Assembly (NCBI GenBank): GCA_040388555.1
Contig: JAZKBP010000027.1
Span: 20,463 to 84,462, forward strand
Length of the DNA stretch: 64,000 nt
Origin: Pseudomonadota bacterium
GTDB taxonomy: Bacteria; Pseudomonadota; Gammaproteobacteria; Burkholderiales; Burkholderiaceae_D
Reading direction: 5' to 3'
This document shows positions 12,180 through 59,556 of the stretch, one piece after another. The position numbers and the translations under genes are program-made. The notes under the pieces are model-generated. The model saw only the letters and a program-made list of their open reading frames with translations. It was not told the DNA's origin and made no database searches. Each line of letters opens with the position of its first letter. The first letter of the stretch is position 1.

Positions 12180-12183
12180 CGCG

Positions 12184-38500: not shown

Positions 38501-39028
38501 TTATTGATTCGGCATTGGGGGCAGTGCGGCCACGAACGCGGCCAAGCCGCCCTTGTCGCGAATGGCGATCGCTTCATCCAATTGCGCAGAGCGATTTTCA
38601 GGACGCTTGGCGAGCAGGCTTTCATAGGCGCGCAGCAAGCCTTCAACGCCGGCCAGGGTTTTCGCAGCGAGGTCGCTCGGTTTGGCGCGCGCGTCGGCGA
38701 TATGGTGTTGAACTTGGTACGCCGCCGTGCTTACGGTGTGATGAAAGCGCATCACACGTTTGAGATCGCCCTTGGCCGCGCCATTCATGAACCAGAATGC
38801 GCCGTCATCCGGGCCCAGCATGTAGTCGGGCGTGTCATCGGCCCATTTTTCGAACCAGCGTCCATCGGCGGACGTCATCGTGCCGATCGGATCTTTATCC
38901 GATGCCAAGGCGATTTTCACGACACGGGCTTCTTCGTCAGCCGTGCCGGCGGCGAGGGCCGGCGCGTTGAAGCTGGCGATGATGGCGAGGACGGCGCAAG
39001 CGCGTTGAACGAGGTGTTGAAATTTCAT
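38501..39028 (-). CDS. secreted hypothetical protein
   Basis: The start MKFQHLVQRACAVLAIIASFNAPALA forms a signal peptide. I recognise no family. Confidence 0.6.
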   Translation of the reverse strand: MKFQHLVQRACAVLAIIASFNAPALAAGTADEEARVVKIALASDKDPIGTMTSADGRWFEKWADDTPDYMLGPDDGAFWFMNGAAKGDLKRVMRFHHTVSTAAYQVQHHIADARAKPSDLAAKTLAGVEGLLRAYESLLAKRPENRSAQLDEAIAIRDKGGLAAFVAALPPMPNQ

Positions 39029-39245
39029 GCTAGGACTCCAAGAGTGTGTGAAGGTTGAATGCGTCGGGCTATAACGACATGAGTAGATGTCGTCGCAGCT
39101 CTGCGTATCCAACCTTGAGCAAGTCTTGTGCCAGCACTGAATTTAGCTTGTCTGAGTATGCAAATGGCGCGATATCGCGAAAATGCGCATCCAAAGGTGC
39201 CCGCATTCGGGCAGTCGATGTTCGAGTCCGGACAAACCTTGGGCG

Positions 39246-39641
39246 CTAAGCTGGCTGGATCGCAAGCGCCGATCGCGCGTCCGCTTTCAGGGCGAAGTGG
39301 GTCCATATGCCGCCAAGGAGGTCGACGGCACCGAAGAGAATAATCATGGGACTGGCCAGGCCAAGTAAAGCGAAGGTGGTGAAGGTTGCGAAAACAATGG
39401 CGCGGGTGTACACCGACGCTTCGAGGAAAGGCTTGTTTTCATGCTTGGCCGCGATCCAGCTATAAACGCCGATCATGAACGCGGTGACGCCGACGACGCG
39501 TATCCACACCTCGGAGGTCGCGGCGATGCCGAAAATCGACAGCAAGACATTTGGCGCGACGATCAATACGGCGCCAATGGCGAACAGGTAAATGGCGAAC
39601 ACCTTGGCGCTAAAAGCTGACTTGGACATGTTTTCCTTCAT
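39246..39641 (-). CDS. hypothetical four-helix membrane protein
   Basis: 131 aa with four hydrophobic segments. Confidence 0.6.
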   Translation of the reverse strand: MKENMSKSAFSAKVFAIYLFAIGAVLIVAPNVLLSIFGIAATSEVWIRVVGVTAFMIGVYSWIAAKHENKPFLEASVYTRAIVFATFTTFALLGLASPMIILFGAVDLLGGIWTHFALKADARSALAIQPA

Positions 39642-39655
39642 AGTGGGTGGCTGGC

Positions 39656-40105
39656 TTAGCGCGCTTCTACCGCGGCTTTGATATCGTTAATGTCTTGCAG
39701 GATGGCCTTGCGCATCACGCCCTTGAAGAACAATGACATCGGGATGAGCATCAAGCTAGCGAGGAAACCTTGCGGCTTGGATTCGTGAGACTCGGTCAAA
39801 ACCATCGCGCCGGCGCTCGCGGAAATGCGTTTGGTGCAAACGAACGCAAAGCCGCCATCTTCTGCCTTGGTTTTGTAGAACTCGTTTTCAAGCGCATCCG
39901 TGATCGATTTTTCCACGCTCGCCGGTTTGCCAAAGAGCATGCGTGTTTCGCGCCATTTCAGGCCGACCAGTCCGCTCGCGGGTTTTTCCAGGATCTCGAT
40001 CGCGTCGATACCATTGATGAATGAAGCGGCGTTCTCGATATCCGTGATCGCTGCCCAGATCGCTGGCTTGGATCCATTGATGCTCATCTGGACTTCAACG
40101 ATCAT
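39656..40105 (-). CDS. SRPBCC-fold protein
   Basis: The start MIVEVQMSINGSKPAIWAAITDIENAASF has AGGAG 7 nt upstream. It shows the START-like pattern. Confidence 0.65.
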   Translation of the reverse strand: MIVEVQMSINGSKPAIWAAITDIENAASFINGIDAIEILEKPASGLVGLKWRETRMLFGKPASVEKSITDALENEFYKTKAEDGGFAFVCTKRISASAGAMVLTESHESKPQGFLASLMLIPMSLFFKGVMRKAILQDINDIKAAVEAR

Positions 40106-40243
40106 GGCGATACTCCTGGGTTTAGGATATCCGGACAGCGCGGGGCCGGGCGTCAAGGCACCGCGCCGCTGGATTGTACTAGCCAATCATTCAATGCGTC
40201 GACTTCGGTTGACGCTAGAAGGCTTGCATACGCATGCATCGAT

Positions 40244-40963
40244 TCATGGTCCGCTGTCCGAACACGTTTTCCGCTTCTTCGCCCAGATCGCAACGAGTGC
40301 CAAGCCTGATAGCTGGAAGGGTAGGCGCCACCAATCATCGAGCGGGTTCGAAACGAGCGGTCCGAACGACCAGGCCGCGTCATACCCAGCATGCATGGCG
40401 ATCGGCACGAGCAGGGATCCGGTCCGAATATAAACGAGCCCAAGTACGTATGAAAGCGAGAAGATCCCGACAGCGCCAACGATGGTGAGCGGTTGTGCGC
40501 CGTAATGGTAAACAGTGAAAATTGCGCTGGAAAGCAGGAGTGCGGAAATCCGTCCGAAGTGGTCTTCGAGCAGCGTCTGCACTACGCCTCGATAGAGAAG
40601 CTCTTCTCTCACTGCGACGATGATGCTGGTGAACCCAAAGATGATACGCACAGTCATGTCAGTCGGCATGCCACCGTCAAAGAGAAAGGGAACGAGCAGC
40701 AATGGCAGCATTCCAGCGAAATACAAGGGCGTAAACTGCGCCGCCACGTGCGGCCGCGGACGTTGTTGAATGATTTCCTTGAACAGGAGCCAATAGGCTG
40801 CGATTGTCACCGCGCGGCAGCCCGATAAAAGCAATTCCAATCCGACGCCTTCCGCGTGCGCGCGCAGCCAGGTACGTGTCAAGATCGCATACGCAAGCTC
40901 GATTGCGATCGCCAATATGATTCTGTTCGACATCGCAGGTTTTGCGAGATTAACTTCACTCAT
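40244..40963 (-). CDS. CPBP-family intramembrane glutamic endopeptidase (CAAX protease/Abi-like)
   Basis: Polytopic membrane protein with VREELLYRG (the EExxxR motif) and a downstream FxxxH. Confidence 0.75.
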   Translation of the reverse strand: MSEVNLAKPAMSNRIILAIAIELAYAILTRTWLRAHAEGVGLELLLSGCRAVTIAAYWLLFKEIIQQRPRPHVAAQFTPLYFAGMLPLLLVPFLFDGGMPTDMTVRIIFGFTSIIVAVREELLYRGVVQTLLEDHFGRISALLLSSAIFTVYHYGAQPLTIVGAVGIFSLSYVLGLVYIRTGSLLVPIAMHAGYDAAWSFGPLVSNPLDDWWRLPFQLSGLALVAIWAKKRKTCSDSGP

Positions 40964-41013
40964 GGAGGTTTGCGATGCGATGAATATGGCGAGTGCGCGT
41001 TAATATTGGACGC

Positions 41014-41370
41014 TCATTCATAGACGATTTCCACGTCCGGGACCGAACGTTCTTTCGTGAATACACCTGCCGAAAGCACACCTTTAATCGATAAGCGACT
41101 TTCGGAAAGCCATGTGAGTTTCAACGGGGCGTTGCCGTCGACGATAAGCACGTTGCCGCCGTCGTCTTGGAGCGAGGACGACGCTGCGATAACAGAGACC
41201 TGTGTATTGAACCCCGTCGCGGCACCACAACTTCTGTGGAAGACAACGGCCTTTAGATTTCCGGAGGGCGACACGACGCTGGCTTGCACTTCGTTCTCGC
41301 ATATCGAATCGCATCCGAGCAGCAACAAAGCGGCGGGGAGGTACGCGAGCCAAGAGTAAATTGATTTCAT
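41014..41370 (-). CDS. small lipoprotein
   Basis: The start MKSIYSWLAYLPAALLLLGC contains the lipobox L-L-G-C. Confidence 0.6.
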   Translation of the reverse strand: MKSIYSWLAYLPAALLLLGCDSICENEVQASVVSPSGNLKAVVFHRSCGAATGFNTQVSVIAASSSLQDDGGNVLIVDGNAPLKLTWLSESRLSIKGVLSAGVFTKERSVPDVEIVYE

Positions 41371-41495
41371 CGTCCAATGATAGCAAACGAAATTCCGGCA
41401 ACTGAACCATATTCCACTGTCCGCACCTGAGGTGGCTAAGTCGTCACGTCGATTGTCGAGTTGCCGGCTTCGCCCAGTCACCCGCCGGAACGGAC

Positions 41496-41927
41496 TTAGG
41501 CGGTATGCGATGCCAGCAAGAGAGCGCGGACCTGCTCATATTCTTCAAGGCGCGCATAGTCTTTTTCGGTCGGCTTGGCAATCCGGCTTAAATCCATATT
41601 CTCCGCGTTATCGGCGAGCTTTACTACAAGTGCTACCGGGTCGGCTGCCGCCCGAGCCGCCGCTTGCAAGCGGGATTCGCCAGGATATTTTGTCAGCGCT
41701 TGGATCGCTGATATCACCGCCGGCGGAAAACGTTCATGTTGCAACTGCTCGAGTGTCACCGCAGTATCCTCAACGACATCGTGCAGCACAGCCGCCATGC
41801 GCTCATGATCGCTCGACACCCGAAGCATCACGCGCAAGGGATGAAGGATATACGCTTGGCCGGCTTTGTCGACCTGGCCCGCGTGTGCCGCAGCCGCAAT
41901 TGCAATTGCGCGTTCAAGTGTCGCCAT
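41496..41927 (-). CDS. small HD-domain protein, RelA/SpoT-type hydrolase-like (small alarmone hydrolase candidate)
   Basis: AHAGQVDKAGQAYILHPLRV...AAVLHDVVEDT fits the (p)ppGpp-hydrolase HD pattern. It is 143 aa from ATG 41927. Confidence 0.7.
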   Translation of the reverse strand: MATLERAIAIAAAAHAGQVDKAGQAYILHPLRVMLRVSSDHERMAAVLHDVVEDTAVTLEQLQHERFPPAVISAIQALTKYPGESRLQAAARAAADPVALVVKLADNAENMDLSRIAKPTEKDYARLEEYEQVRALLLASHTA

Positions 41928-42050
41928 GGGTGCTCCGATATGGATGTCGTACCCCCATAGTAGCAAATGCGTATCTTGTCTTGGCACACCGAATTGCATG
42001 AGAAACATGGAGCCCAGTCGCCTCGTACTGTCTCCGTATGTTGCGAGTGC

Positions 42051-42176
42051 CCGATTTCGCACGATAGCGTACGATTTCGCCCGATTGCGGCGCGAATTCT
42101 GCCGATTCGTATCCGAAGGCACGCGCTTTGAATCCGAAAACGCACGATTTCGAGCCGAAATTGAACGAATTTCGTC
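42051..42176. repeat. phased array of CGAT(T)TCG-containing decamers
   Basis: CCGATTTCGC/ACGATAGCGT/ACGATTTCGC/CCGATTGCGG/CGCGAATTCT/GCCGATTCGT occupy 42051-42110 in exact 10-nt register. Further copies lie at 42144 and 42165. Confidence 0.6.
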
Positions 42177-45754: not shown

Positions 45755-45895
45755 CGTCGCAGTGTGCCACTACCCTGCATCGCGCGCAGGCTGGCGTTTC
45801 CGATTGGCTAGCGACCTCCAGCTACCCGAGTGTGTGGCACATACGGATTTGCTACCTACATATTCATGGGTACCGAATGGGACTGCAAACTTCAG

Positions 45896-46246
45896 TCAGT
45901 GAAGGCGAACCGTGCAGCTAATGGGCTGGCCGTTTGCCTTAATGGTGATGTCGAAACGTTCCGGAATTTTTGGTACATAACGGAGGTTGCCGCTACTTCC
46001 ATCAATCTGTAAATCGGCACGCAGAAGATGCGCGCCGCACGCGTCAATTTTGCGCAATTCAAGGAGACGGACACTCGGCGCTCCGGCCTCCTTCAATCGG
46101 CGCATGAATTCCGAAATGTCAGAATCGGCTTCTGCCAGGGCGATAACACGAGCGCCTCCGATTCCCGAACTTGCAAATGGAATAAAGACCGATGACGGCG
46201 TCGCGGCAGCCAGGGCTGATGAGAGATTGAGTGGATGAGGTTTGCA
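45896..46246 (-). pseudogene. open frame lacking a start codon upstream of an internal ATG (69-aa ORF 45896..46105); possible gene remnant
   Basis: My own translation shows the frame open from 46246 (...VFIPFASSGIGGARVIALAEADSDISEFMRRLKEAG...). No ATG/GTG/TTG occurs before 46105, and that ATG has no Shine-Dalgarno. Confidence 0.2.
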
Positions 46247-46260
46247 TCAATCCGGACCAA

Positions 46261-46542
46261 TCACACTTTATCGAAGGACACACTGATGCCAAACGTGTTT
46301 TCGAGCCAACCCTCTGCGGCCTTGAAGTCTCCGAAGCGGACAACGTGATCGCCGCCAGCAAGGTGCAGCGTGATAACCGGGGTGACCACGACTGGACTTA
46401 TCTGAGGTTCCCCGTCTCCAGCCAAGCTTGCGACGTTTACACCTCCTCCTGTTCGCACGGTCTTGCAGCTGACAGCTTCCACCTTTTCAAGATCGACGAA
46501 GTGGTTGGGGTTGTCCTTTTCCGGCACCTTAAAGTATTTCAT
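46261..46542 (-). CDS. hypothetical protein (93 aa)
   Basis: The start MKYFKVPEKD has a strong AGGAGG 6-7 nt upstream. It is divergent from parA. Confidence 0.55.
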   Translation of the reverse strand: MKYFKVPEKDNPNHFVDLEKVEAVSCKTVRTGGGVNVASLAGDGEPQISPVVVTPVITLHLAGGDHVVRFGDFKAAEGWLENTFGISVSFDKV

Positions 46543-46717
46543 GCTGTCCCTCCTGATCATGCCGGCAACCGGCCGGCTCGGATTCTGCATTCTAGCGCCT
46601 TCTGGACGGATCATGCTTAGATGACACTTGCTCCTGAGTAAGCGTAAAAACGGTTCTTCCTATAATCGTATTGTCGGCAAAGCGTATTGCCTCCAATCCG
46701 TAAATAAGGGAACCAGC

Positions 46718-47347
46718 ATGATCATCGGCTTACTGAACCAGAAGGGCGGGGTGGGGAAGACCACACTCGCCATCGCACTTGCATCGTGCTTCGCCCAGAT
46801 GGGCTATCGTGTCCTCCTGGTGGACATCGACCCCCAACGCAGCGCCCTGGATTGGGCGGCAGCGCGCCAGGGAGATCCGTTGTTCTCCGTCGTTGGGCTG
46901 CCGCGGGCGTCCATCCACAAGGAAATCGCCTCGATCGGCGCCGGCTACGACATTGTGATCCTGGACGGCCCGCCGCGCGTGACCGACCTGGCCCGCAGTG
47001 CCATCCTGGCGTCGGACCTAGTGGTGATCCCGGTGCAGCCATCGCCCTATGACATCTGGGCGGCCGAGGAGATCATCAAGCTGGTGGACGAGGCGCGCAT
47101 CTATAAGGAAAACCTGAAAGCCTGCTTTGCGATTAACCGCAAAATCGCAAATACGGCCATCGGGCGCGACGTGCGCGACGCTTTGGCTGCCTACCCACTG
47201 CACGTCCTGGAGTTGACCGTCACGCAGCGCGTGGTGTTTGCCGAGGCAGCTGCATCCGGCCAGGCGGTATGGGAGGTCGACCCGGACAGTCCGGCCAGCG
47301 CCGAGACGACCGCACTTGCAACGGAAATTTTGGAGTATCTGGCATGA
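46718..47347 (+). CDS. parA: ParA-family partition ATPase (small plasmid type)
   Basis: Deviant Walker A NQKGGVGKTT, VLLVDIDPQ, and ILDGPP, at 209 aa from MIIGLLN. Confidence 0.9.
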   Translation: MIIGLLNQKGGVGKTTLAIALASCFAQMGYRVLLVDIDPQRSALDWAAARQGDPLFSVVGLPRASIHKEIASIGAGYDIVILDGPPRVTDLARSAILASDLVVIPVQPSPYDIWAAEEIIKLVDEARIYKENLKACFAINRKIANTAIGRDVRDALAAYPLHVLELTVTQRVVFAEAAASGQAVWEVDPDSPASAETTALATEILEYLA

Positions 47348-47589
47348 GCAAGAAGGTGACGTTCGGCACGCGCCCGACTGCGCGCGAGACACCGCCAGCG
47401 CCCGCAGGTGACGACTGGGTAACGAACCGCAGCGAAGGCGGTGCTCCAGAACCACTCAAGCGCTTGACGTTCGACGTTCCCGAGAGCTTGCACACCGCAA
47501 TGAAGATCGACTGCGCGCGGCGCAAGGTGAAGATGGGACACGAAGTGCTGGCCCTGCTTGAAGCGAAATGGCGTCCAAAGCAGGACTGA
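47344..47589 (+). CDS. ribbon-helix-helix partition/centromere-binding protein (ParG-like)
   Basis: ATGA overlap with parA. A disordered basic N-terminus is followed by KRLTFDVPESLHTAMKIDCARRKVKMGHEVLALLE, an RHH pattern. Confidence 0.7.
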   Translation: MSKKVTFGTRPTARETPPAPAGDDWVTNRSEGGAPEPLKRLTFDVPESLHTAMKIDCARRKVKMGHEVLALLEAKWRPKQD

Positions 47590-47658
47590 TGCGAATCCCG
47601 GTGTCATAGTCGGCGATTTGTTGAGCTGTAACACTATCGCTCGAAGCGGGTTTGCCCT

Positions 47659-48414
47659 TTACTTTGCCGATACCAATACGAACTCCTTCGGCAGGGCCAT
47701 CGTTTTTTGCCATTCTGTGGTGATCGTCAGACGAGAAAAATCTATTTCCACTGGGCCTTCGCTAATCCCTTCCGGGATTTCTGGTTCAATGCGAACATTA
47801 AATCGTGCAAAATCGACCTTCTTGCCGTCAATAAAATCAAAGGCGGTGAGCTTGAGTATCGGGCCTTCGATTGTGCCCATTATCTGCACCGTCGGATCAG
47901 GGAATCCCCATTTCGGGACGGCTCTTGACGTAATCATTCCTACCGCCGTTCCACCTTCCATTGATAGCTCGATTCTTACTGACGGCTCCGCAGGGCCGCT
48001 CTTGATTGATTGGGCTTGGCTAGTCCATATTCCCGTCAAATTTCGACTGAGCCGCCACTGATGCCATTCAGCGGCAAGCGTTTGATAGGCAGTCGACGGT
48101 ATTTTGGGGATGTCCTTCACGTTTGCCACGCCTGCGGCCGACAGCGCAACGCAAATGGCGACAAGCAGCGCCGCGACACGACGCCCCCACACCACGACAC
48201 TGGACGTTTTAGTAGGGATCGAAGGCGATTGTCGAACGTTCCGACGCAGGTGAGTTCGTTGCGACGGGTGCACAGGTGGCTTACGCATCTTGTTGGCGGA
48301 CTGTAATGGATTGGACCCTGAATCATATCGCAAAGCGCGATCATCTCCGCTCGCGCAGGAGGCGTCGGTCCTCCCTGAAGCGAAATGGCGCCCCAAGTCA
48401 GGTTGATTTGCCAT
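47659..48414 (-). CDS. hypothetical single-pass membrane protein
   Basis: 251-aa ORF with one TM helix (VAALLVAICVALSAAGV) and a ~160-aa extracytoplasmic domain. An alternative start lies at 48288. Confidence 0.5.
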   Translation of the reverse strand: MANQPDLGRHFASGRTDASCASGDDRALRYDSGSNPLQSANKMRKPPVHPSQRTHLRRNVRQSPSIPTKTSSVVVWGRRVAALLVAICVALSAAGVANVKDIPKIPSTAYQTLAAEWHQWRLSRNLTGIWTSQAQSIKSGPAEPSVRIELSMEGGTAVGMITSRAVPKWGFPDPTVQIMGTIEGPILKLTAFDFIDGKKVDFARFNVRIEPEIPEGISEGPVEIDFSRLTITTEWQKTMALPKEFVLVSAK

Positions 48415-48447
48415 ACTGTGTTTTTATCCTGTTGTTTTGGGGGCGCC

Positions 48448-48672
48448 ATGGAAACCTTCGAAGAACGCCTTGTGCCGTTCTACTTGGTTCGCTATTTCAA
48501 CGAAGTCACCAAAAAATGGGCGACGACTAGGTGGCGCATGTCCGCGGAGGCTGCCGCGAGCCGATACGCGGGCCAGCAGTATGAGATTTTGCGTGGAACC
48601 AGGATCTACCAGCGCCTCGGTGGCGACCCGATGCGTAGCCAGGCCGGCCACCTCTACCAGAAGCGTGAATAG
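48448..48672 (+). CDS. hypothetical protein (74 aa)
   Basis: METFEERLVPFYLVRYF... with a GGGGG Shine-Dalgarno-like run 4 nt upstream. It is the only plus-strand ORF in the string. Confidence 0.4.
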   Translation: METFEERLVPFYLVRYFNEVTKKWATTRWRMSAEAAASRYAGQQYEILRGTRIYQRLGGDPMRSQAGHLYQKRE

Positions 48673-49155
48673 CTACCAAAGGCAACTGATGTCGATCGCG
48701 TTGCTGTTCTTGTCCTTGGGGTAGGTGACGGTGCATTCAGTGGTCGCGTCATCGAGTTGCCTTGATAGGATTGCGTCGCGCTGGCCGCCGTCGCCGTAGT
48801 AACACGCCATCCATTTCTCACCATAGCCATCCCGGCTAAGGCCTTCCCACTTCGAAAATCCTCGGCCGCCGTCCTTGCCCGAGCCCTTAGTCCTACCAAC
48901 CGTCGTTGGCTTTGACATCGTCATTGTTTCGGGCGCCCCAAGCATGAGGCCAGCCGAATGCAATGGCAGACCGGGCTGAAACTCGAAAGGCACGAACGGC
49001 GTCCATCCATCGGGTGCCTCGACGATCTTGATCGACTTCCTCGGTATTTCAGCCGGGCATGCAATGCGATGCTCGACTGGCGCGACATTGTGGAACCCCA
49101 ATTGGCGTAATAACGAGGAAATAAGCAATATCGAACTATGGAAGGTGAATCGCAT
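48673..49155 (-). CDS. hypothetical protein with signal-peptide-like N-terminus
   Basis: MRFTFHSSILLISSLLRQ... The ATG lies inside the last codons of the upstream ORF (20-nt overlap). Cysteines are spaced through the sequence. Confidence 0.5.
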   Translation of the reverse strand: MRFTFHSSILLISSLLRQLGFHNVAPVEHRIACPAEIPRKSIKIVEAPDGWTPFVPFEFQPGLPLHSAGLMLGAPETMTMSKPTTVGRTKGSGKDGGRGFSKWEGLSRDGYGEKWMACYYGDGGQRDAILSRQLDDATTECTVTYPKDKNSNAIDISCLW

Positions 49156-49534
49156 ATTCCATCATGTTTGGACTAAAATCAAAATATGGCCATGGAGCTG
49201 GTTCAGTGAAGCCAAACTTGTCGCGTTCACCATTTATACCTAACTCATGTGGTTTCTTGATTTGTTTGCCAAATGTATTGGTTGGAGCGGCGTCAAGTAT
49301 GGCAGCAAATTTTGCGTGAATTTTGTCGATATCCGCTATCTGTCGAATATTGGATTTAATGTCTTGCATTCTCTTTAACCATTCTGGGTGGGCGGTGATC
49401 GTGTTTAATGTGCATGCCCCCTGATTCCAAAGGCGGACTCCAAGCACGACATGGTCAGAATATAAGTAATTAACGCCGATTACTAGCTTTTGGCGTTGTT
49501 CCAAGTAGATATCATAGCTGTCGTATTTAGACAT
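49136..49534 (-). CDS. hypothetical protein (132 aa)
   Basis: The preferred start is ATG 49534 (MSKYDSYDIYLEQ) with GGGAA upstream. The track start at 49615 is a TTG without a Shine-Dalgarno. Confidence 0.5.
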   Translation of the reverse strand: MSKYDSYDIYLEQRQKLVIGVNYLYSDHVVLGVRLWNQGACTLNTITAHPEWLKRMQDIKSNIRQIADIDKIHAKFAAILDAAPTNTFGKQIKKPHELGINGERDKFGFTEPAPWPYFDFSPNMMEYAIHLP

Positions 49535-49598
49535 ACGTTTCCCATGTCCCAAAGTCCGATCGAGTGCGCTATTTGCAAACCCCGGTTTTTCAGAAATT

Positions 49599-49910
49599 CT
49601 ATTCTGATTCTTCAAAAAAAGAAAAGGCGCAAGACTTGATTATTCCTCGACGTGTTTTATAACAAATAATATGTCCATCAGAATTGGCCAAGTTCCCCAT
49701 TTCGTCTTGGTCATAGACTACATCGTAATCTCCTACGAATTCAGCGCCATATTCATCAGCGACTCTCTTTATTTTTACAAAAGTAACGTCCCCAACTCCA
49801 TCAAATAGACCAGAACTTCTTGCCTTGGCGTTCCACGTTAGTCTTTGGCCGCTACGCAATGCCAATGACCTGCGCCAGCTATCTCGCTCTTTGTCGTCAT
49901 AAATTCGCAT
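49599..49910 (-). CDS. hypothetical protein (103 aa)
   Basis: ATG start in low-G+C DNA. I recognise no family. Confidence 0.45.
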   Translation of the reverse strand: MRIYDDKERDSWRRSLALRSGQRLTWNAKARSSGLFDGVGDVTFVKIKRVADEYGAEFVGDYDVVYDQDEMGNLANSDGHIICYKTRRGIIKSCAFSFFEESE

Positions 49911-50117
49911 GAAATTTTCATTCCTGGATATTGGTAATATATTTAGTTCTGTCTCGCTATATTTGGGAAGACGTTGACATCAAAGCTTGGAAAGATCCGG
50001 GAGTGCGCGCAATTTCTTTATGGCTGACATGATGAACTGATTCCATGAAACGAACAACCTTTGCCCTGCAGCGCTCAGGCTAAACAGTCACGATCCATCT
50101 ACCATAATCCTCGCGGA

Positions 50118-50519
50118 TTATTTCCAATAATTCAATATCTTCCTCATCTTCATATCAATTTGGTATGCGCGTTCAGTTTCTAGTTTACGTTCTGGGGTGG
50201 TGCGTTTCATTCTTTCTTCTTCTAGTCTCTTTACTTCAGCCTGATATCCTGGTGTATTTTGAGCGATACGTAATAGTTCATTCGGATCAGTGATGGCTCG
50301 CCGCGGCTCGCGCGCACTCTCAGGTTGCGCGTAATATCTATTTTTTAACCTATCGAGTTCGCTATTAGCATTGCGAATAATATTGGACCAGCGCTCCTTG
50401 GTTTGCTGTTCATATTCGACCGACGTATAGTTGAGCTCGCTGCGTCGAGCAACTTGAAGGCGGCTAATTTCTTGTTCGAGGGCGGCCTCCGCCCTTTCAA
50501 ATTCTTGTCTGTTCATCAT
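50118..50519 (-). CDS. hypothetical coiled-coil protein (133 aa)
   Basis: AAGGA lies 6 nt upstream. The product is a highly charged heptad-like sequence rich in E/R/K/Q. Confidence 0.55.
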   Translation of the reverse strand: MMNRQEFERAEAALEQEISRLQVARRSELNYTSVEYEQQTKERWSNIIRNANSELDRLKNRYYAQPESAREPRRAITDPNELLRIAQNTPGYQAEVKRLEEERMKRTTPERKLETERAYQIDMKMRKILNYWK

Positions 50520-50606
50520 GGTCGTCCTTGTGGAGCGGTAGGGTATGAACCGTATGAACCATGTCCTGTCCCTACCGGAAAATTATATTTATTAATCTAA
50601 CAACTA

Positions 50607-50765
50607 TCAAGAACGCAAATTTCTAAGCTTTTGTTCCTGTCGCCGAAGTTCTTCCTCCATGGAGCGTCGATAATCTGGCTCGTCTTTTGCTCGTTGCGAG
50701 TCAAGGTTATCTTCAAGGCCATTTATAATATCCTGAACTACACGTTCTTCATCTTTTGTCGCCAA
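50607..50765 (-). CDS. hypothetical charged mini-protein (52 aa, TTG start)
   Basis: My own translation gives (M)ATKDEERVVQDIINGLEDNLDSQRAKDEPDYRRSMEEELRRQEQKLRNLRS. GGAG lies 7 nt upstream, and an in-frame TAA just upstream forces the TTG start. Confidence 0.4.
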   Translation of the reverse strand: MATKDEERVVQDIINGLEDNLDSQRAKDEPDYRRSMEEELRRQEQKLRNLRS

Positions 50766-50863
50766 AGTTTATCTCCAATTGAGTGAGTAGTTAAAAATAG
50801 CTAAATTTATCTCTTCCATAGCAACTCTATTTTGCCATGAAATTATCAGCATCTTAGTGAATT

Positions 50864-51067
50864 TTAATTACCGGTCGGCGACTCATATTTTCCGTTACAC
50901 TTGGAACAGTTCCACACATCCCAGTCCATAACCGAGCCGTCAGCGCTGCATTTCCAAAGGCGGCGATCATTTTGGCTATTGTAGGAGCCATGCTTTGGGC
51001 ATGGTTTTCCCCAAGCGTAATTATTGCCACAATCGCTGCACTGCCAAATGTCTATATCCGCTGGCAT
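50864..51067 (-). CDS. Cys/Trp-rich zinc-ribbon-like mini-protein (67 aa)
   Basis: CxxC (10,13), CxxH (23,26), C40 and CxxC (54,57), with three W-x-C units. AAGGAG lies upstream. Confidence 0.55.
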   Translation of the reverse strand: MPADIDIWQCSDCGNNYAWGKPCPKHGSYNSQNDRRLWKCSADGSVMDWDVWNCSKCNGKYESPTGN

Positions 51068-51145
51068 GATGTTAAAACTCCTTGGTTAAAGTGGTTCAAT
51101 TGTTTCGTTGAAAGACAACTTCCAAAAATTGGAATATCCGACGAA

Positions 51146-51631
51146 TCAACGTTTTTTCAATGAAACTGCCATCGGACCTTTTTGTCCTGCTTGGACATTA
51201 AATAAAATCTTATTACCTTCAGAGAGAGAGTTAAAGCCTTCTACTTTATCAACACATCCAGAAAAATGGAAAAAAATCTCGGCAGGATATTTTTTATTTT
51301 CCAAATCAAAAGAAATAAAACCAAAACCTTGATCTTTCTTGATAATCTTGATGCTACCTAAATAGGTCTCATCGTCGCAAACGTCAACAGGTATTGAAAA
51401 TTGGTTGCCTCGCTGCGGCACATCGTGTTCTATGTTGCCGTATCCCCCATCATATAGTCGCTTGTAAAGCGGCTGCGATTCATTACCGAGGCGATTGTAT
51501 AGCGCTTTGAGTCGTTGCATTTCAGATTCATCGCATCTGTCTTGCCATTGACTACGTAGACTATTCCGGCGTTTTTCAATATCCTGTATGCAACTTCTTA
51601 TTGTATATAACTCATCCGCGTCTAAAGGCAT
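51146..51631 (-). CDS. cold-shock-domain fusion protein (helical N-terminal region + C-terminal CSD)
   Basis: QGFGFISF and EIFFHFS match the RNP1/RNP2 motifs of cold-shock domains. The N-terminal ~90 aa are unrelated and helical. Confidence 0.7.
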   Translation of the reverse strand: MPLDADELYTIRSCIQDIEKRRNSLRSQWQDRCDESEMQRLKALYNRLGNESQPLYKRLYDGGYGNIEHDVPQRGNQFSIPVDVCDDETYLGSIKIIKKDQGFGFISFDLENKKYPAEIFFHFSGCVDKVEGFNSLSEGNKILFNVQAGQKGPMAVSLKKR

Positions 51632-51919
51632 ATTTCGATTCTCCCTTTTCTATATTGACCAAATATAAATATTGCGGCTGTAGGTAAACTCTTGGCACAC
51701 TTGGAGTGTAAGGTAGGGTGATGCGTAAGTAAATGACTTTTGGTTTGAATCGATCAGTGGTTGGACAAGGCCAAGAGCTGCGGGGTGTATTCGAATGAGC
51801 TACGGCAAGGAGGCGAAACCGAGAAGACCCCGCAGATTTGCGCACTCGCTCTCGTCTAGGGAAGCGCTGATCAATTGACGATTTCAGCGGTTTTCCAAGT
51901 TTTAGAGGAAACGGCTTCG

Positions 51920-51946
51920 CCGAAAAAACGAAACGCGCTTTTTCGG
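51920..51946 (-). terminator. possible terminator hairpin after the 124-aa ORF
   Basis: CCGAAAAA-N11-TTTTTCGG lies 6 nt downstream of the stop at 51952. The stem is A/U-rich, so this is weak. Confidence 0.3.
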
Positions 51947-51951
51947 GGCCG

Positions 51952-52326
51952 TTACATCCATTTTTTTAGCAAAATTGCAGTATTTCTTGCGCCTTTCGGC
52001 GTGTTGTTCAAAGTCAGTAAACGCGGGCCGTCTAGCGCAATGTCCAGCATTTGGTCCATTTGAAATAGCTGGCCGACTCGAATCCTTGTATGAGTGTTGA
52101 GCTCATTTCCGGTGATGCGATCGAACAATACTGCCGGTTCGAATTTTACGCGGTCAAGTTCCAGAGTGCGAAGAAAGGAAGCAAGTGCGTTTTCGACGAG
52201 CAATGATTGGTACCCGGCCATGAATGGGCCGCTTTCACCCTTTTCAATGAACTGAAATCTTCCATCGTCGAGTTCGTACACCCGCGCAAAAGGCAAGTCA
52301 CAATAGATGTAGAAAGGTAATGGCAT
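51952..52326 (-). CDS. hypothetical protein (124 aa), immunity-protein-like
   Basis: The preferred start is ATG 52326 (MPLPFYIYCDLPF). The track start at 52341 is a TTG. It lies 21 nt downstream of the 144-aa ORF. Confidence 0.5.
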   Translation of the reverse strand: MPLPFYIYCDLPFARVYELDDGRFQFIEKGESGPFMAGYQSLLVENALASFLRTLELDRVKFEPAVLFDRITGNELNTHTRIRVGQLFQMDQMLDIALDGPRLLTLNNTPKGARNTAILLKKWM

Positions 52327-52347
52327 TCGATGGTGGCCCAACTAAAA

Positions 52348-52782
52348 TTAAGCCGTCGTACCTTGATGTTCTAGAAAGTCGCGTACCGCTTCACAAGTCG
52401 ATTCCGGCGCATTCGGGTGTTCAAGAACTAACCGCAATTCTGTAAGCCACATACTCCGTTGCTCATTCGAAACCACGGAATTGAGAATGCGATTTACCAT
52501 CCACACCGTCAAGTCCGTAGGCTGGCGATGCAGCGACTCCGGCAGGAGTAATTCGTTTCCAGGAATAGCTTCAAGTTCGTGAACCAACGGACCAGGTGAG
52601 CCAAACTCGGCTTCAGGAAAGCGTTCGAGAAGATCAAGAATGGCGGGTGCCGCCTGTTCTCGACCGGCCAACGTACGGAATTCCGAAAAAATTTCGTAGA
52701 GCCGCTCGACGTTCTCCGCATCGTCATCAGATGGCACCAGCGATTGGAGCGCGCGTATGGTCGAGTCAATAGTCGTTGTCAT
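52348..52782 (-). CDS. hypothetical acidic all-helical protein (144 aa), immunity-protein-like
   Basis: ...LLERFPEAEFGSPGPLVHELEAIPG...TVWMVNRILN... There is no clear Shine-Dalgarno. Confidence 0.5.
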   Translation of the reverse strand: MTTTIDSTIRALQSLVPSDDDAENVERLYEIFSEFRTLAGREQAAPAILDLLERFPEAEFGSPGPLVHELEAIPGNELLLPESLHRQPTDLTVWMVNRILNSVVSNEQRSMWLTELRLVLEHPNAPESTCEAVRDFLEHQGTTA

Positions 52783-52796
52783 GTATTAAGCGGCTT

Positions 52797-52829
52797 AAAA
52801 GTAGGCGCCCCAATAGGCGCCTTTGTTTT
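52797..52829. terminator. bidirectional rho-independent terminator-like hairpin
   Basis: AAAAGT-AGGCGCC-ccaata-GGCGCCT-TTGTTTT is a 7-bp GC stem flanked by an A-run and a T-run. Confidence 0.6.
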
Positions 52830-53158
52830 GGACACCAGGTCGGAAAAGGACGCCTCTTCAGGTCACTCCACCTATGGTGTCAAATAGTCATCTCACTTTA
52901 GCACACCCGAAGTCGAAGGCGCAAACCGACAATTCCCATGGTGAAACTTTTGAATTGGACACGTCTCCCTCAGCTTGCGCGCAAAACGAGCACAATCGAG
53001 CATAAGGCATCACGCGCGTGGCACCATGCCTAGACGAGCATGAATTTCGGCAACGAACTCCGCCGGAAAGGCGCGTTCCGCATGTTCAACCCAGTATCCG
53101 CGTTGCCACCAGTGCCAAGGCGCCACCCGAACCCAGCTCCGCCTGCTGCGCAATATGC

Positions 53159-53186
53159 CTTGAAATCGCCGCCCGCACCCCCATGT
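53159..53186 (+). promoter_or_regulatory. sigma-32 (heat-shock) promoter of htpG
   Basis: CTTGAAA-13 nt-CCCCATGT matches the sigma-32 consensus (CTTGAAA...CCCCATnT). It lies 75 nt upstream of the htpG ATG. Confidence 0.7.
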
Positions 53187-53260
53187 TGGTACGGCTCGAT
53201 TGATTTTATTGCTTAGTTTTCAATCTCTTAACCTGCAAACCGTATTAACGAGGACATAAA

Positions 53261-55183
<1,923 letters not shown>

Positions 55184-55238: not shown

Positions 55239-55331
55239 CGCGCTCAGATCTTGCGCGCCAAATCCCAAGCTTTGCGCATATTAATAATTTGCTACAATTA
55301 TCGATCCATTCTACGCGCGCGAACATCACTG

Positions 55332-56609
55332 ATGAATATTCCAGATAAATTGCGGGCGATTAAAGACGCCCTGTCCGGCAGAAGGCAGGAGCGCAAGCGC
55401 TTGCGCGGGCCGGCACCGCTGAACTACGCGATTGCCGATGCAATCGGCATGCTCGACGCGGCGTCATGGAAGGCGATGAGCGCCGACGCCGGGTTTTTCA
55501 TGTCCATCGAATACCTGGCCGCGCTCGAACAGGTCTTGCCGTCCAATCTGTCGGCGCGCTATGCCTTGATTTACAGCGGCGAGGGGAGCGAGCGCAAACC
55601 GGTGGCGGCTGTGTATATGCAAATCGCGGATATCAGCCTGGCGCAGGCGCGCCCGGAAAAGGGCGCCGACGAAGTCAAACGCCTCGATCTGCTGGCCGCT
55701 AACGCACGCCAGCGCGTCCTGAGCTGCGGCAATCTGCTCACCTACGGCCAGCATGGCATCGCCTTCGCGCAAGGCGTCGATGAAAAGCTGGCATGGCATG
55801 GCGTGGCCGAAGTGTTGTACCGGGTGCGCCGCGCCGAAAAATTGGCCGGCAAGACGCACTTCATCATGATCAAGGATCTGCACGCGCCCTACACGGAGCA
55901 AGCCGTCCATTTGCAGAGCCTCAGCTACCGCTACGTGGAAACGGAGCCGAACATGCTGCTGACCTTGCAGGACGATTGGAAAAGCTACGACGATTATCTG
56001 GCCAGCCTGGCTTCCAAATATCGCGGCAAGGTGCGCAGCGGCATATTCAAGCCGATGGACGAGGCGGCCTGCACGATCGAGCAAGTGGCCGATTTGTCCG
56101 CGGTCCAGGACCGGGTTCACGCCCTGTACAAGGCGGTGCAATCGAACGCCAGCTTCCGCCCCTTCGAGCTGCGCCCCGAATACTTCGCCACACTACAACA
56201 GGTCGCTGGCGCGCGCATGCGCTGCAGCGCCGTCATGCGCGACAACACCATGCTTGGTTTCCTGATCACGGTGGCCGATGGTCCCACCGCTATCGCCTAT
56301 CACATCGGCTTCGACCGCGATGCGGCCGAGGATTTGCCGATTTACCTGCGCCTGTTGCACGCGGGCGTCGCCGATGCCATCGCGCTCGGATGCAAGCAAG
56401 TGTCGTACGGACGCACCGCCCTCGAACCGAAGGCGGCATTGGGCGCGAAGCCGCAGACCTTCGGCATCCTGGTGCGGCACCGCCAGCCCGTGCTCAACAA
56501 GATCATCAAGCGCATTTTGCTCGGCGTCGAACACGAAGATGCGCCCGAGCGCAGCCCATTCAAGAACGCGCCCGCGCCAAAACAAGACAAGCAGCTTGAA
56601 ACCACATGA
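55332..56609 (+). CDS. GNAT-fold / FemAB-like acyltransferase family protein (function uncertain)
   Basis: The start MNIPDKLRAIKD lies within the longer track ORF. Size and C-terminal half resemble acyl-CoA N-acyltransferase-fold proteins. Confidence 0.6.
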   Translation: MNIPDKLRAIKDALSGRRQERKRLRGPAPLNYAIADAIGMLDAASWKAMSADAGFFMSIEYLAALEQVLPSNLSARYALIYSGEGSERKPVAAVYMQIADISLAQARPEKGADEVKRLDLLAANARQRVLSCGNLLTYGQHGIAFAQGVDEKLAWHGVAEVLYRVRRAEKLAGKTHFIMIKDLHAPYTEQAVHLQSLSYRYVETEPNMLLTLQDDWKSYDDYLASLASKYRGKVRSGIFKPMDEAACTIEQVADLSAVQDRVHALYKAVQSNASFRPFELRPEYFATLQQVAGARMRCSAVMRDNTMLGFLITVADGPTAIAYHIGFDRDAAEDLPIYLRLLHAGVADAIALGCKQVSYGRTALEPKAALGAKPQTFGILVRHRQPVLNKIIKRILLGVEHEDAPERSPFKNAPAPKQDKQLETT

Positions 56610-57136
56610 CAATTTTGCATACCGCGCGCCTGCGCCTGGAACCATTTGACATGAGCCATCTCGATGGCTTGGCACGTATGAACAGCGATCCGGACGTGAT
56701 GCGCTACTTGACCGGCAAGCCGGAATCGCGCGAGGAAACCGAGGCCGCGATCGTGCGCATCCAGGGCCGCTGGATCGAATGGGGCTATTCGTGGTGGAGC
56801 TTCATCGAACTGGAATCGAAAGAAGTGATCGGGGCCGGCACCATTCAACGCCTTGGACACGATCGCGCCAATCCGCTCGAAATCGGATGGCGCCTGCGCA
56901 AGGATAAATGGGGGCAGGGTTACGCGTCCGAGGCGGCGCGCACGATGGCGGCGTTCGCCTTCGACAGCATAGGCGACGACCTTTTGAGCGCCGTCTGCCA
57001 TCCCGAAAATCTCGATTCGGCGCGCGTGATGCAGCGCTTGGGGATGACATACCACGGTGTGGAAACCTGGTACGACATGGATACCTCGGTGTATCGCATG
57101 ACGCGCGCCGACTGGGAGCGTGTCACGAGCGGCTGA
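56606..57136 (+). CDS. GNAT-family N-acetyltransferase (RimJ/RimL-like)
   Basis: TARLRLEPFDMSHLDGL...GWRLRKDKWGQGYASEAA matches the pattern. An ATGA overlap links it to the upstream gene. Confidence 0.8.
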   Translation: MTILHTARLRLEPFDMSHLDGLARMNSDPDVMRYLTGKPESREETEAAIVRIQGRWIEWGYSWWSFIELESKEVIGAGTIQRLGHDRANPLEIGWRLRKDKWGQGYASEAARTMAAFAFDSIGDDLLSAVCHPENLDSARVMQRLGMTYHGVETWYDMDTSVYRMTRADWERVTSG

Positions 57137-57214
57137 GGGTATATCGCATGTCGGCGTTCGTAGATGTTGAACACTCAGCCTCGGCGGCAGGAAGAAAACG
57201 AATCAGCGCTCGTT

Positions 57215-57322
57215 TCAAAGGTCAGTCATCCCGCCATCGAGCGCGAGGTTCGCCCCAACCATATATGCCGACGCGTCGCTGGCCAGGAAGAGGGCGGCAT
57301 TGGCCACTTCATCGGCCAGGGC
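57215..57322 (-). pseudogene. 3' remnant of a short-chain dehydrogenase/reductase gene
   Basis: Only the C-terminal ~35 aa (ALADEVANAALFLASDASAYMVGANLALDGGMTDL) look SDR-like. The upstream part of the ORF is low-complexity nonsense. Confidence 0.6.
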
Positions 57323-57327
57323 AAAGA

Positions 57328-57540
57328 TTGGACCGCGCCGTTGAAGTGTTTTGGCGCCACGGCTTCCAGGACGCGTCGATGCACGAGCTGACCGAGGCCA
57401 TGCGCTTGAGCAAACCGAGCCTGTACGCGGCCTTTGGCGACAAGGAGGCGCTGTACTTGAAGGCGCTCGAGCGCTATAGCGCCTTGCTGATAGCGGGTCA
57501 GGCGGCGCTCTGTCCGCGCGCGCCCCGCTGCACGCATTGA
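57328..57540 (+). pseudogene. truncated TetR-family regulator (HTH region only)
   Basis: LDRAVEVFWRHGFQDASMHELTEAMRLSKPSLYAAFGDKEALYLKALERY is a TetR N-terminal HTH. It has no proper start and stops about 20 aa later. Confidence 0.6.
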
Positions 57541-57660
57541 TTTCTGCGCACAGATTTTTGGGTCCCGTCGCGAAATTGCGGGCTCCTGTCGGAGAGGCGC
57601 CACGCCCGCTCCAGGTTTTACCTACAATGCCCCGACTGAACAAAACGGGGAACCGATCGC

Positions 57661-59556
57661 ATGGAATCAGCACTCATACGCCGCCAAGCGCCACAGCTAG
57701 GCCTGGCGCGACTGGCCCTGCTGGCCGGCGCGCTGCTGCTGGGCGCCAGCGCGCGCGCGGTGGCCGCGCAGCCGCCACTGCCGAATAATCTCGACGGTCT
57801 CGATCGCCAACTGGCCGCGCTGTTCAAGGCCGGTGCGGTACCCGGCGCGTCGGTGGTATTGATCGAAAACGGGCAGATTGTTTTTGAAAAAGGCTATGGC
57901 TACGCCGACCTCGCCAAGCAAATTCCTGCCACCGCCCACACCCCGTTCCGCGCCGGTTCGATCTCCAAGGGGCTCACGGCCATCGGCGTCATGGCCTTGG
58001 TCGAGCAGGGCCGCTTGAGCCTGGATGCGCCGCTGCACACCCTCGCGCCGGAAATCACCTTCGCCAATCCGTGGGAACGCACCGACCCGGTGCGCCTGGT
58101 GCACCTGCTCGAACATACGACCGGCTGGCCCGATATTTCGACCCGCGTCTTGTCGAAGGACGAAGCCAACTGGTCGACCCTGCAGGGCATTAACTTCAGC
58201 AGTGCCGAATTCATCAGCCGCTGGAAGCCGGGCACCTTCGCGGTCTATAACAACGCCGGCCCCGCCGTGGCTGCCTATGCCATCGAGAAGCGCAGCGGCC
58301 AAAGCTTCGACCAGTACATGAGGGCCAGCGTGCTCGAACCGATGGGGATGCGCGGTGCCGACTTCACGCTCACGCCCGCCCTGGCCAAGAGCGTCGCCAA
58401 AAGCTATGGGCCGGACCTGACTCAAACGCCGTACCAGCACATCGTGCTCAAGCCGGCGGGTTCCCTGCTTGTCAGCGCCCACGAACTGGCGCAGTTGGCG
58501 CGCTTCTATATTGGGCGCGGCAGTGTCGACGGGCGCCAGATATTAAAGCCGGAATCGGTAGCGCGCATCGAACGCGCGGAATCGAACCTGGGCGCGCGCT
58601 CGGGTTTCTACAACGGTTACGGGCTTGGCAATGCGCCGATTCCCGACAGCGGCATCACCTTCCGAGGCCATAACGGCGGCATCGACTCATTTACTTCCGT
58701 GCTTGGCTACACCATGCGCAACGGCTCCGGCTACGTGTTGATGGCCAATGGCGGCGATGGGGTCGACTTCGCCAGCCCGGCCGCTCACTTGATCCAGGCG
58801 TGGCTCACGCGTGGATTGCCGCTTGAGCCGCAAGCGACGGTGCCACTTAGCGATGATCAATTGCGGGCATATGCGGGCTTTTACCGCACCATCACGCCGT
58901 CCAACGACCTGATGCGGCCCTACGCGGAGGTGTTCGGCCTGACGCGGGTGAGCGCCGCCCAAGGTGGGCTGCGCATGGGCGGCAAGGACTTTGTGCCGAC
59001 GGGGCACCATGGCTTTCGCCGTAGCGACCGCAGCGAAGCGAGCGTGTCGTTTATCGAGCAAGATGGCCAGCTATTCAAGCTCAACCTCACCTCGGCCCAG
59101 CAAAAGGTGGGGCTGTGGTACATGATCCCATTGTGGCTGCTTGGCGCGATCCTGGTGCTCGGCCTGGTGGTGGGCATCGTCATGCTGATTCCATGGATAG
59201 TCGCACAGCGGCGCGCACGGCTCGCTGGCAAGGGTGGCCTGGTGCTTCGTCTGCTGCCGCTGGCCGCCACCTCCGCCTTGGCGGCAACCCTGGCGCTGCC
59301 CTTGGCGGCCTTGGTGAACGGTGCCAGCACGTCGGTTCAGCAATTGGCCAGCATCGGTCCCTATTCCTTGCTGATCATGGCTTGCAGCGTGCTCTACCCC
59401 ATGCTGGCGGTGGCGGGCTTGCTGTCGGCGCTGCGCCAACGCCGCGCGCCGCGCGCGATTCGTGCCTACGTCGGCGTGACGTCGCTGGGGCTGATCAGCG
59501 TTGCCGCCTATGCGGCGACGATCGCTTGGCTGCCGCTGCGCACCTGGCTGATGTAG
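57661..59556 (+). CDS. serine hydrolase (beta-lactamase/PBP4*-like) with C-terminal membrane helices
   Basis: Signal peptide, SxxK motif (GSISKG), and four hydrophobic helices at the C-terminus. Confidence 0.8.
   Translation: MESALIRRQAPQLGLARLALLAGALLLGASARAVAAQPPLPNNLDGLDRQLAALFKAGAVPGASVVLIENGQIVFEKGYGYADLAKQIPATAHTPFRAGSISKGLTAIGVMALVEQGRLSLDAPLHTLAPEITFANPWERTDPVRLVHLLEHTTGWPDISTRVLSKDEANWSTLQGINFSSAEFISRWKPGTFAVYNNAGPAVAAYAIEKRSGQSFDQYMRASVLEPMGMRGADFTLTPALAKSVAKSYGPDLTQTPYQHIVLKPAGSLLVSAHELAQLARFYIGRGSVDGRQILKPESVARIERAESNLGARSGFYNGYGLGNAPIPDSGITFRGHNGGIDSFTSVLGYTMRNGSGYVLMANGGDGVDFASPAAHLIQAWLTRGLPLEPQATVPLSDDQLRAYAGFYRTITPSNDLMRPYAEVFGLTRVSAAQGGLRMGGKDFVPTGHHGFRRSDRSEASVSFIEQDGQLFKLNLTSAQQKVGLWYMIPLWLLGAILVLGLVVGIVMLIPWIVAQRRARLAGKGGLVLRLLPLAATSALAATLALPLAALVNGASTSVQQLASIGPYSLLIMACSVLYPMLAVAGLLSALRQRRAPRAIRAYVGVTSLGLISVAAYAATIAWLPLRTWLM

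Follow-up and report, generated by a model that had tools for sequence, protein, structure and literature searches.

We analyzed a 64,000-nucleotide stretch of the genome of a Massilia-like bacterium (assembly GCA_040388555.1, contig JAZKBP010000027.1, positions 20,463 to 84,462), which is referred to here as the window and numbered from its first letter. Between the stop codon of mocR and the promoter of htpG the window carries about 7.4 kb of foreign DNA (45755..53157), an islet that was horizontally acquired and is seen in this strain only. The islet is probably a mosaic of foreign fragments confined to this strain and not one functional system. According to the model that we favor, at least three pieces of foreign DNA of differing G+C would have accumulated in the mocR-htpG spacer and would have been joined and trimmed by illegitimate recombination. 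Block A would derive from a Burkholderiales-type plasmid or integrative element and would have kept an intact type Ib parA-parG partition pair that lacks a replicon, along with a Tai2-type immunity gene that lacks Tae2. Block B would have brought in five or six co-oriented small genes known from this genome alone, including those for a cold-shock and a zinc-ribbon protein, and block C would consist of an o129-family gene that is truncated and one gene of the o144 family, each family being found singly in many unrelated genomes. The remaining genes would be cargo of unknown or no function, partly decaying. The blocks and the right border are as follows.

Block A, 45755-49155: 56.7% G+C.
Block B, 49156-51951: 42.7% G+C.
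Block C, 51952-53156: 51.2% G+C.
Host htpG promoter, 53159..53186, plus strand: sigma-32 type, CTTGAAA-N13-CCCCATGT, outside the islet and marking its right border.

At about 64% G+C, the window carries core genes like those of Massilia and related Oxalobacteraceae; relatives show at most 85% identity in MocR and at most 91% in HtpG. Relatives were represented by 80 loci from a MocR scan, one genome per species. Both mocR and htpG were located in 59 of these loci; the other 21 had no htpG match past mocR, 16 of them with the full 10 kb downstream and 5 on contigs ending within 0.7-2.9 kb. The spacer between the two genes is 60-217 bp in 47 of the 59 related Oxalobacteraceae loci with both genes, and hence the interval in the window is an insertion; in the other 12 the distance is 0.7-8.6 kb. 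An earlier reading of this DNA from its letters and open reading frames (ORFs), here called the sequence-only reading, had proposed that the interval be compared in related strains to define the empty site, and the comparison supplies one. Neither the islet ORFs (tblastn) nor the islet DNA (blastn, tblastx) gave a match in any of the 80 related loci.

At the empty sites a conserved CCTTGAAA-N13-CCCCAT stands between a few and a few dozen bases past the mocR stop, and this sequence is kept upstream of htpG in all 14 of the Oxalobacteraceae empty sites that were printed (L002-L042), as well as in the window. We take it to match the sigma-32 heat-shock promoter consensus. Its position at 53158-53186 implies that the inserted DNA spans 45755 to about 53157, so that the right end formerly placed at 52830 has to be moved to the -35 box of the htpG promoter. 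Since the islet ends exactly at this box, the heat-shock control of htpG is probably untouched by it. Two Logan contigs cover 46714-51885 and 51886-53375 at 100%, and the right junction is thus seen independently. Neither the internal structure nor the passage into htpG is an artifact of one assembly, and an assembly artifact was ruled out.

Composition changes abruptly past the mocR stop at 45754, as the sequence-only reading had stated, with G+C falling from 0.67 to 0.53-0.58. The mean G+C of the islet is 50.5%, compared to 64.0% for the rest of the window, and a minimum zone of 0.36-0.46 lies between 49.0 and 51.8 kb. The 28-37% G+C quoted earlier applies to those 60-nt lines that are lowest in G+C (down to 28%, at 51275) and not to the islet as a whole. 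G+C at third codon positions ranges from 0.32 to 0.79 in islet genes, compared to 0.84 in mocR. The composition breaks fall in or beside genes: at the 5' end of o160, at the 3'-truncated o129, and at a stray 42-nt parG tail. In o160, G+C steps from 58% to 42% at about 49050-49100, within the first ~30 codons. In composition the three blocks extend over about 45755-49080 (57% G+C), 49080-51750 (43%), and 51750-53157 (51%). All ORFs on the earlier list exist, and an independent gene caller on a Logan assembly of run SRR26324622 agrees on most of them, having called everything from the cold-shock protein through ParA with the exception of a 52-aa ORF. The count of ten small ORFs past the par pair, nine of them on the minus strand, was confirmed; the 52-aa minus-strand ORF missed by the gene caller is an eleventh.

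The origin proposed for block A is suggested by its partition genes, which are listed here with the two small ORFs that adjoin them.

parA, 46718..47347, plus strand: 209-aa small plasmid-type partition ATPase with a KGGVGKTT Walker A motif.
parG, 47344..47589, plus strand: ribbon-helix-helix centromere-binding partner, ATGA-coupled to parA.
o251, 47659..48414, minus strand: ORFan with one predicted membrane helix.
parG 3'-end copy (…EAKWRPK), 48356..48397, plus strand: 42 nt, degenerate, 76% match to 47539-47580, tblastn E 8e-4.
o95, 48385..48672, plus strand: the sole plus-strand small ORF, 74 aa according to the independent gene caller.

ParA matches Pfam AAA_31 at 7e-28 and CbiA, as well as PHROG 164 (ParA-like), and ParG has a weak ribbon-helix-helix Pfam match and 55% amino acid identity to an annotated plasmid ParG. 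The stop of parA and the start of parG overlap as ATGA (junction sequence GGCATGAGC), and the earlier description of the pair, a ParA with KGGVGKTT coupled through ATGA to a ribbon-helix-helix gene, is borne out by these matches. Plasmid matches to the interval came from 320 records and involve parA and parG only; the best is a 12-kb plasmid of Cupriavidus pauculus (NZ_CP082867) with the order parA-parG-repA, at 70% amino acid identity for ParA and 55% for ParG. Like type Ib partition cassettes (ParA/ParG, ParF/ParG-like), the islet pair has a small ParA without an N-terminal DNA-binding domain and an overlapping ParG-like gene. Unlike the plasmid cassettes, it is chromosomal, has no rep gene and no recognizable centromere repeats, and is accompanied by a second, degenerate parG tail 0.8 kb downstream. 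Neither repA nor a RepA-like remnant was found in the window, no repeat family was found beside parA or parG at a 9-nt seed, and inspection by eye of 46615-46717 and 47590-47660 revealed nothing obvious in the way of centromere-like repeats.

The 42-nt copy of the parG tail is likely a recombination scar and suggests recombination between two par loci. It lies within the N-terminal part of o251, just before o95, and makes the first ~98 codons of o251 doubtful; one annotation calls the C-terminal 153 aa of o251 only. A search of 5.8 billion proteins with o251 returned only o251 itself, and there was no family or PDB match; o95 has no Pfam or PHROGs match.

We regard it as very improbable that the interval is a mobile element, integrative or plasmid-like, that still functions and whose parA-parG stabilizes an excised form. 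Such an element would be consistent with two intact, translationally coupled genes this similar to those of a real plasmid, but the interval contains no replication gene, integrase, relaxase or oriT-associated gene, its ends share no repeats, no iterated centromere-like repeats are seen beside parA, and the internal truncations and G+C steps point to decay. The pair is most likely a relic.

Among the other classical marks of mobile DNA, a tRNA was not found in the window, integrase and transposase domains were not found among the ORFs scanned, and direct or inverted repeats of at least 8 bp common to both islet ends were not found, in agreement with the sequence-only reading, which had seen no tRNA, integrase, transposase or flanking direct repeat. 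Like classical genomic islands, the islet is atypical in composition and is missing from relatives at a conserved site, but the tRNA target, integrase and flanking direct repeats of such islands were not found for it. It resembles the low-G+C ORFan islets of high-G+C Betaproteobacteria in having small genes without known function and signs of decay, and differs in lacking the classical island marks and in its position immediately upstream of a heat-shock promoter.

At the mocR-htpG site, the 12 other insertions nearly all have a G+C within about 0.04 of their flanks, the low-G+C exceptions being L055 (0.59, compared to 0.70) and L074 (0.56, compared to 0.67). Such of their ORFs as can be read resemble ordinary host genes. 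The host-like G+C of these insertions indicates that the spacer is no general landing pad for low-G+C elements, and that candidate explanation was rejected. The L074 insertion, from Duganella phyllosphaerae (11456-12511), is 1.2 kb long with 56% G+C and carries a single 351-aa ORF, possibly a YhcG/DUF1016-type PDDEXK nuclease, which it resembles by eye. In two Massilia loci (L003 11482-11663 and L008 11446-11663) the same spacer contains a palindromic element of ~100-170 nt, CGCCCTCGCGAAGGCGGGGGC…GCCCGCCTTCGCGAGGGCG, that is like a repetitive extragenic palindrome (REP) or a miniature inverted-repeat transposable element (MITE).

The firmest functional assignment among the small genes concerns the one that straddles the boundary between blocks A and B in composition.

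o160, 48673..49155, minus strand: STY0301-family (Tai2-type) predicted periplasmic immunity protein against Tae2, an amidase of type VI secretion systems (T6SS).

The o160 protein matches NCBIfam NF042415 with an E value of 4.6e-17 and 62.1 bits, compared to a cut-off of 22; it is 49-68% identical to 16 homologues, and alignments show that it retains every invariant family residue, including four conserved Cys. A Tae2-family amidase effector gene is directly upstream in six of the seven distinct contexts of o160 homologues. In these six (P0163, P0014, P0161, P0154, P0162, and P0151) the homologue is preceded by a gene for a protein of 136-137 aa; a profile of three of the upstream proteins matched, with an E value of 4.5e-39, PDB 6WIN (“Type 6 secretion amidase effector 2”), and all six form one family by alignment, with conserved Cys and His motifs. 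Since the homologues of o160 follow Tae2 genes, we identify o160 as a Tai2-type immunity gene. Tae2 and Tai2 are an effector-immunity pair of Salmonella pathogenicity island 6 (SPI-6) (PMC10469887, citing Russell et al. 2012), and STY0301 is located in SPI-6 beside the Hcp gene sciM (PMC3680342). An Hcp gene also precedes the Tae2-Tai2 pair in L089, at this one locus only. The gene-neighborhood link between the NCBI “STY0301 family” and Tae2 is of use in itself, as it gives a functional reading to a family with an uninformative name.

A tblastn search found no Tae2 in the 64-kb window, and the o160 copy is therefore an orphan; the family assignment stands. It has in common with the paired genes the family threshold, the invariant residues, and an N-terminal hydrophobic segment, but unlike them it has no Tae2 or Hcp gene nearby or elsewhere in the window. 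The usual place of Tae2 upstream of o160 is occupied by o159, which is not homologous to Tae2: the proposal that o159 is a decayed Tae2, raised by motif-like matches in a forced MAFFT alignment, was refuted by an hhalign probability of 1.2% and an hmmsearch score of -1.4. The N terminus of o160 has a short hydrophobic core and no clear AXA cleavage site and lies beyond the G+C break; with this step located in its first ~30 codons, o160 may have a non-native signal peptide. If exported, o160 would bind and block incoming Tae2 amidase in the periplasm. We infer both the export and the protective activity, and this is the sole mechanistic inference for the islet that has real support. A soil Massilia-like strain joins the bacteria with a stand-alone Tai2-type gene, in keeping with the view that the spread of orphan immunity genes serves as a defense against type VI secretion by neighbors.

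In other genomes, Tae2-Tai2 pairs adjoin genes for SIR2 and a HerA-like (DUF87) protein, HicAB, and BrnTA (L171 127-2878; L087 6968-7675; L090 1165-1678). Such neighbors place the pairs in variable defense and toxin-antitoxin neighborhoods and not in T6SS core clusters.

Block C contains two genes with many relatives.

o129, 51952..52341, minus strand: 3'-truncated; from a family of ~145-aa proteins, function unknown.
o144, 52348..52782, minus strand: member of a large ~145-aa all-alpha (eight-helix) family found in several phyla, function unknown.

The o129 family is the smaller of the two. Alignment shows that o129 lacks the conserved C-terminal ~35 residues of its family, …FVSPxLK…LRFSEGL, and since the missing C terminus is absent in every frame we regard o129 as a truncated remnant. 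Its AlphaFold2 (AF2) model has a predicted local distance difference test (pLDDT) score of 82, and the best PDB match of the model is MXAN_0049 (Foldseek E 0.077, probability 0.97, TM 0.42, root mean square deviation [rmsd] 10.9), an experimentally supported immunity protein of Myxococcus (PMC12077131). This modeled likeness of fold is a weak lead and not family membership. Metagenomes were scanned with a profile of 5 sequences, a profile of all 16 being too divergent. The 78 metagenomic loci with o129 homologues contain no other islet ORF (tblastn 1e-4), and no neighbor family recurs in them beyond a handful of near-identical contigs.

Relatives of o144 were numerous in an exhaustive phmmer search, made with a concatenate of nine ORFs against 1.84 billion representative proteins, in which the best 150 of 941 matches were listed; the o144 family accounts for 118 of these 150. 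Its members are mostly stand-alone proteins of ~145 aa, and some (P0016, P0067, P0118, and P0120) have two tandem o144 domains. An apparent o144-o129 fusion proved to be an artifact of the concatenated query, P0121 being a GNAT domain joined to an o129 domain. The AF2 model of o144 is an eight-helix all-alpha fold with a pLDDT of 96, and comparison with PDB folds gave no significant neighbor, only designed helical repeats at E 0.1 or worse. Homologues occur on chromosomal contigs as well as on plasmids (of Bacteroidota, Planctomycetota, and Burkholderiales), with unrelated neighbors; no toxin was found near them in the contexts with Pfam or record annotation, and viral contigs contained no homologue. 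Three members of the family have sub-threshold matches to Imm30, with values that fall well short of the gathering score. Both o144 and o129 represent widespread families with confident fold models (that of o144 above all) but without an entry in Pfam, which makes them candidates for curation as new families.

On the plus strand at 52803-52822, a short way upstream of where o144 starts, there is a G+C-rich hairpin and then a T run, with no plus-strand gene before it. This may represent what is left of a terminator, or it may protect htpG from read-through.

The o160, o129, and o144 genes bear on the proposal of the sequence-only reading that the islet is an array of orphan immunity genes. In that case most of the small genes would neutralize toxins of T6SS, contact-dependent inhibition (CDI), or other polymorphic systems. 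The proposal holds firmly for o160, a Tai2-type gene without its effector, and it draws weak hints from o129, whose best fold match is MXAN_0049, and from o144, with three weak Imm30 matches in its family and tandem duplications within one protein as in immunity domains; the other ORFs give no sign of it. The genes are also small, varied, and co-oriented, like those of the Salmonella Typhi immunity islet (PMC7400221). However, just 1 of about 13 genes is above a family threshold; the values of the MXAN_0049 match are weak and o129 is truncated; the Imm30 scores do not approach the gathering score; the 78 o129 loci have no conserved neighbor and the annotated o144 contexts no toxin; block B genes without detectable relatives offer no effector neighborhoods to inspect; and the islet has no recombinase and no repeated intergenic element of the type found with recombinase-associated acquired interbacterial defense (rAID) clusters. 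Like the S. Typhi T6SS immunity islet (Barretto & Fowler 2020, PMC7400221) and the Bacteroidales AID clusters, the islet holds restricted, effector-less, co-oriented small genes. In those systems most genes are homologous to effector-adjacent immunity genes, compared to one gene and two weak candidates here, and the present islet differs further in its strain-unique ORFs, its plasmid partition cassette, and its lack of a recombinase and a repeated intergenic element. We consider a mainly immunity-encoding islet unlikely.

The ORFs of block B are the following.

o159, 49136..49615, minus strand: 132 aa from an internal ATG; strain-unique, singleton cluster.
o103, 49599..49910, minus strand: strain-unique.
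o133, 50118..50519, minus strand: strain-unique, charged, probably helical or coiled-coil.
o52, 50607..50765, minus strand: short, acidic, TTG start; missed by the independent gene caller, coding doubtful.
o67, 50864..51067, minus strand: small zinc-ribbon protein with CxxC pairs.
o161, 51146..51631, minus strand: unique ~90-aa N-terminal region followed by a C-terminal cold-shock domain.

The cold-shock domain of o161 matches PF00313 (E 7e-12, 45.5 bits compared to a cut-off of 27) and CspA-family PDB entries, and its RNP1 (KDQGFGFI) and RNP2 (IFFHF) motifs are both intact. The PF00313 match upholds the earlier recognition of this domain; the accompanying statement that no other small ORF could be placed does not hold, as o160 belongs to the STY0301 family and o144, o129, and o67 have relatives. 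One relative of o67 (P0101) is a 66-aa protein with 65% identity, and another (P0088) is a 2220-aa SLH-domain protein with about ten tandem o67-like domains, so that the stand-alone o67 may be a solo version of the repeat module. P0088 also has Pfam RYYR-CCHC and rubredoxin-like matches.

For o159, o103, o133, and the N-terminal region of o161, the best 150 of the 941 matches in the representative search contained only the query proteins themselves. Ten islet proteins were looked up in a collection of 15 billion sequences; eight were present, and none of the eight had a 90%-identity cluster-mate from another genome. The unassigned ORFs drew no match from PHROGs, PADLOC, NCBIfam, Rfam, PDB sequences, viral contigs, or the collections of phages and plasmids; the sole PADLOC match, to CSD_V with 23 bits, is due to the generic cold-shock domain. 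A retron with a cold-shock effector (Se72 type) was considered: no reverse transcriptase domain was found in the ORFs scanned and there was no Rfam match, and o161 scored 24 bits against the retron effector model NF038236, compared to a cut-off of 82 (E 2.7e-5).

The sequence-only reading had offered, as its second proposal, an undescribed multi-gene defense or accessory system, and had named as evidence against it the occurrence of these ORFs singly, with no conserved linkage, in other genomes. That is what we find. The homologues of o129, o144, and o160 are single and have no shared neighbors, apart from the Tae2 genes shared by the Tai2 homologues; the eight islet proteins present in the 15-billion collection are without 90%-identity cluster-mates from other genomes, and PADLOC gave its weak cold-shock match only. 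The second proposal is accordingly not sustained.

A narrower version can be framed for block B. We think it improbable that block B (~49.1-51.7 kb: o159, o103, o133, o52, o67, and o161) is a functional operon and a new accessory module, for instance an abortive-infection or anti-defense set built around the extended cold-shock binder and the zinc-ribbon protein, whose origin in an unsampled low-G+C mobile lineage would leave its relatives undetected. Slightly less credible still is that block B (about 49.1-51.7 kb), by itself or together with its neighbors, is an undescribed anti-phage defense or anti-defense module centered on the extended cold-shock protein. Its five or six co-oriented genes have sequences like ribosome-binding sites and coding-type GC1>GC2, their low G+C is typical of mobile defense cargo, and weak matches to retron effectors were obtained with NF038236 and with PADLOC CSD_V (1.2e-5). 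The retron matches, however, are due to the generic cold-shock domain, as the bit score of NF038236 indicates; ORF domain scans and Rfam gave no reverse transcriptase, nuclease, NTPase, or Rfam RNA in the islet; the best 150 of 941 matches and the cluster look-up held no homologues or conserved gene set; and nothing matched in phage or viral collections.

Several observations weigh against the mosaic of unlinked, partly decaying fragments that we prefer. No integrase, att repeats, or tRNA accounts for the entry of the DNA. Both parA and parG are intact and so are possibly still in use. Weak relatives (E 1e-15 to 1e-3) of o159, o133, o103, and the o161 N terminus may lie beyond the best 150 of the 941 matches. 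The co-orientation, the short or overlapping gaps (o160/o159/o103), and the plausible Shine-Dalgarno sites fit co-transcription, and block B is possibly a functional unit.

If the islet is such a mosaic, little changes for the field; it provides a clear case of foreign fragments piling up and decaying in a short spacer with no visible integrase.

Two further ORFs lie at the left end of block A.

o69, 45896..46105, minus strand: 69 aa, coding status uncertain; no Pfam, PHROGs, or NCBIfam match.
o117, 46261..46614, minus strand: real start probably internal; no family matches.

The exact sequence of o117 is not in the protein collection.

Elsewhere in the window, a second region of lowered G+C (54-57%) lies at 39000-42150, upstream of the conserved EamA-PALP-mocR block. 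It contains a CAAX/CPBP (Rce1-like) protease gene (40244-40963), a gene for an HD-domain protein (41496-42122), and ORFs without a Pfam match. Its genes are absent from the 10-kb flanks of the 80 relatives, except for a weak HD-domain match in L022 (37.5% identity), and the region is therefore probably another accessory patch. Just downstream of htpG, the region 55330-59556 encodes a GNAT/FemAB-like protein and others that are absent from the flanks of relatives. The part of the window that is syntenic with relatives is EamA-PALP-mocR-htpG only.

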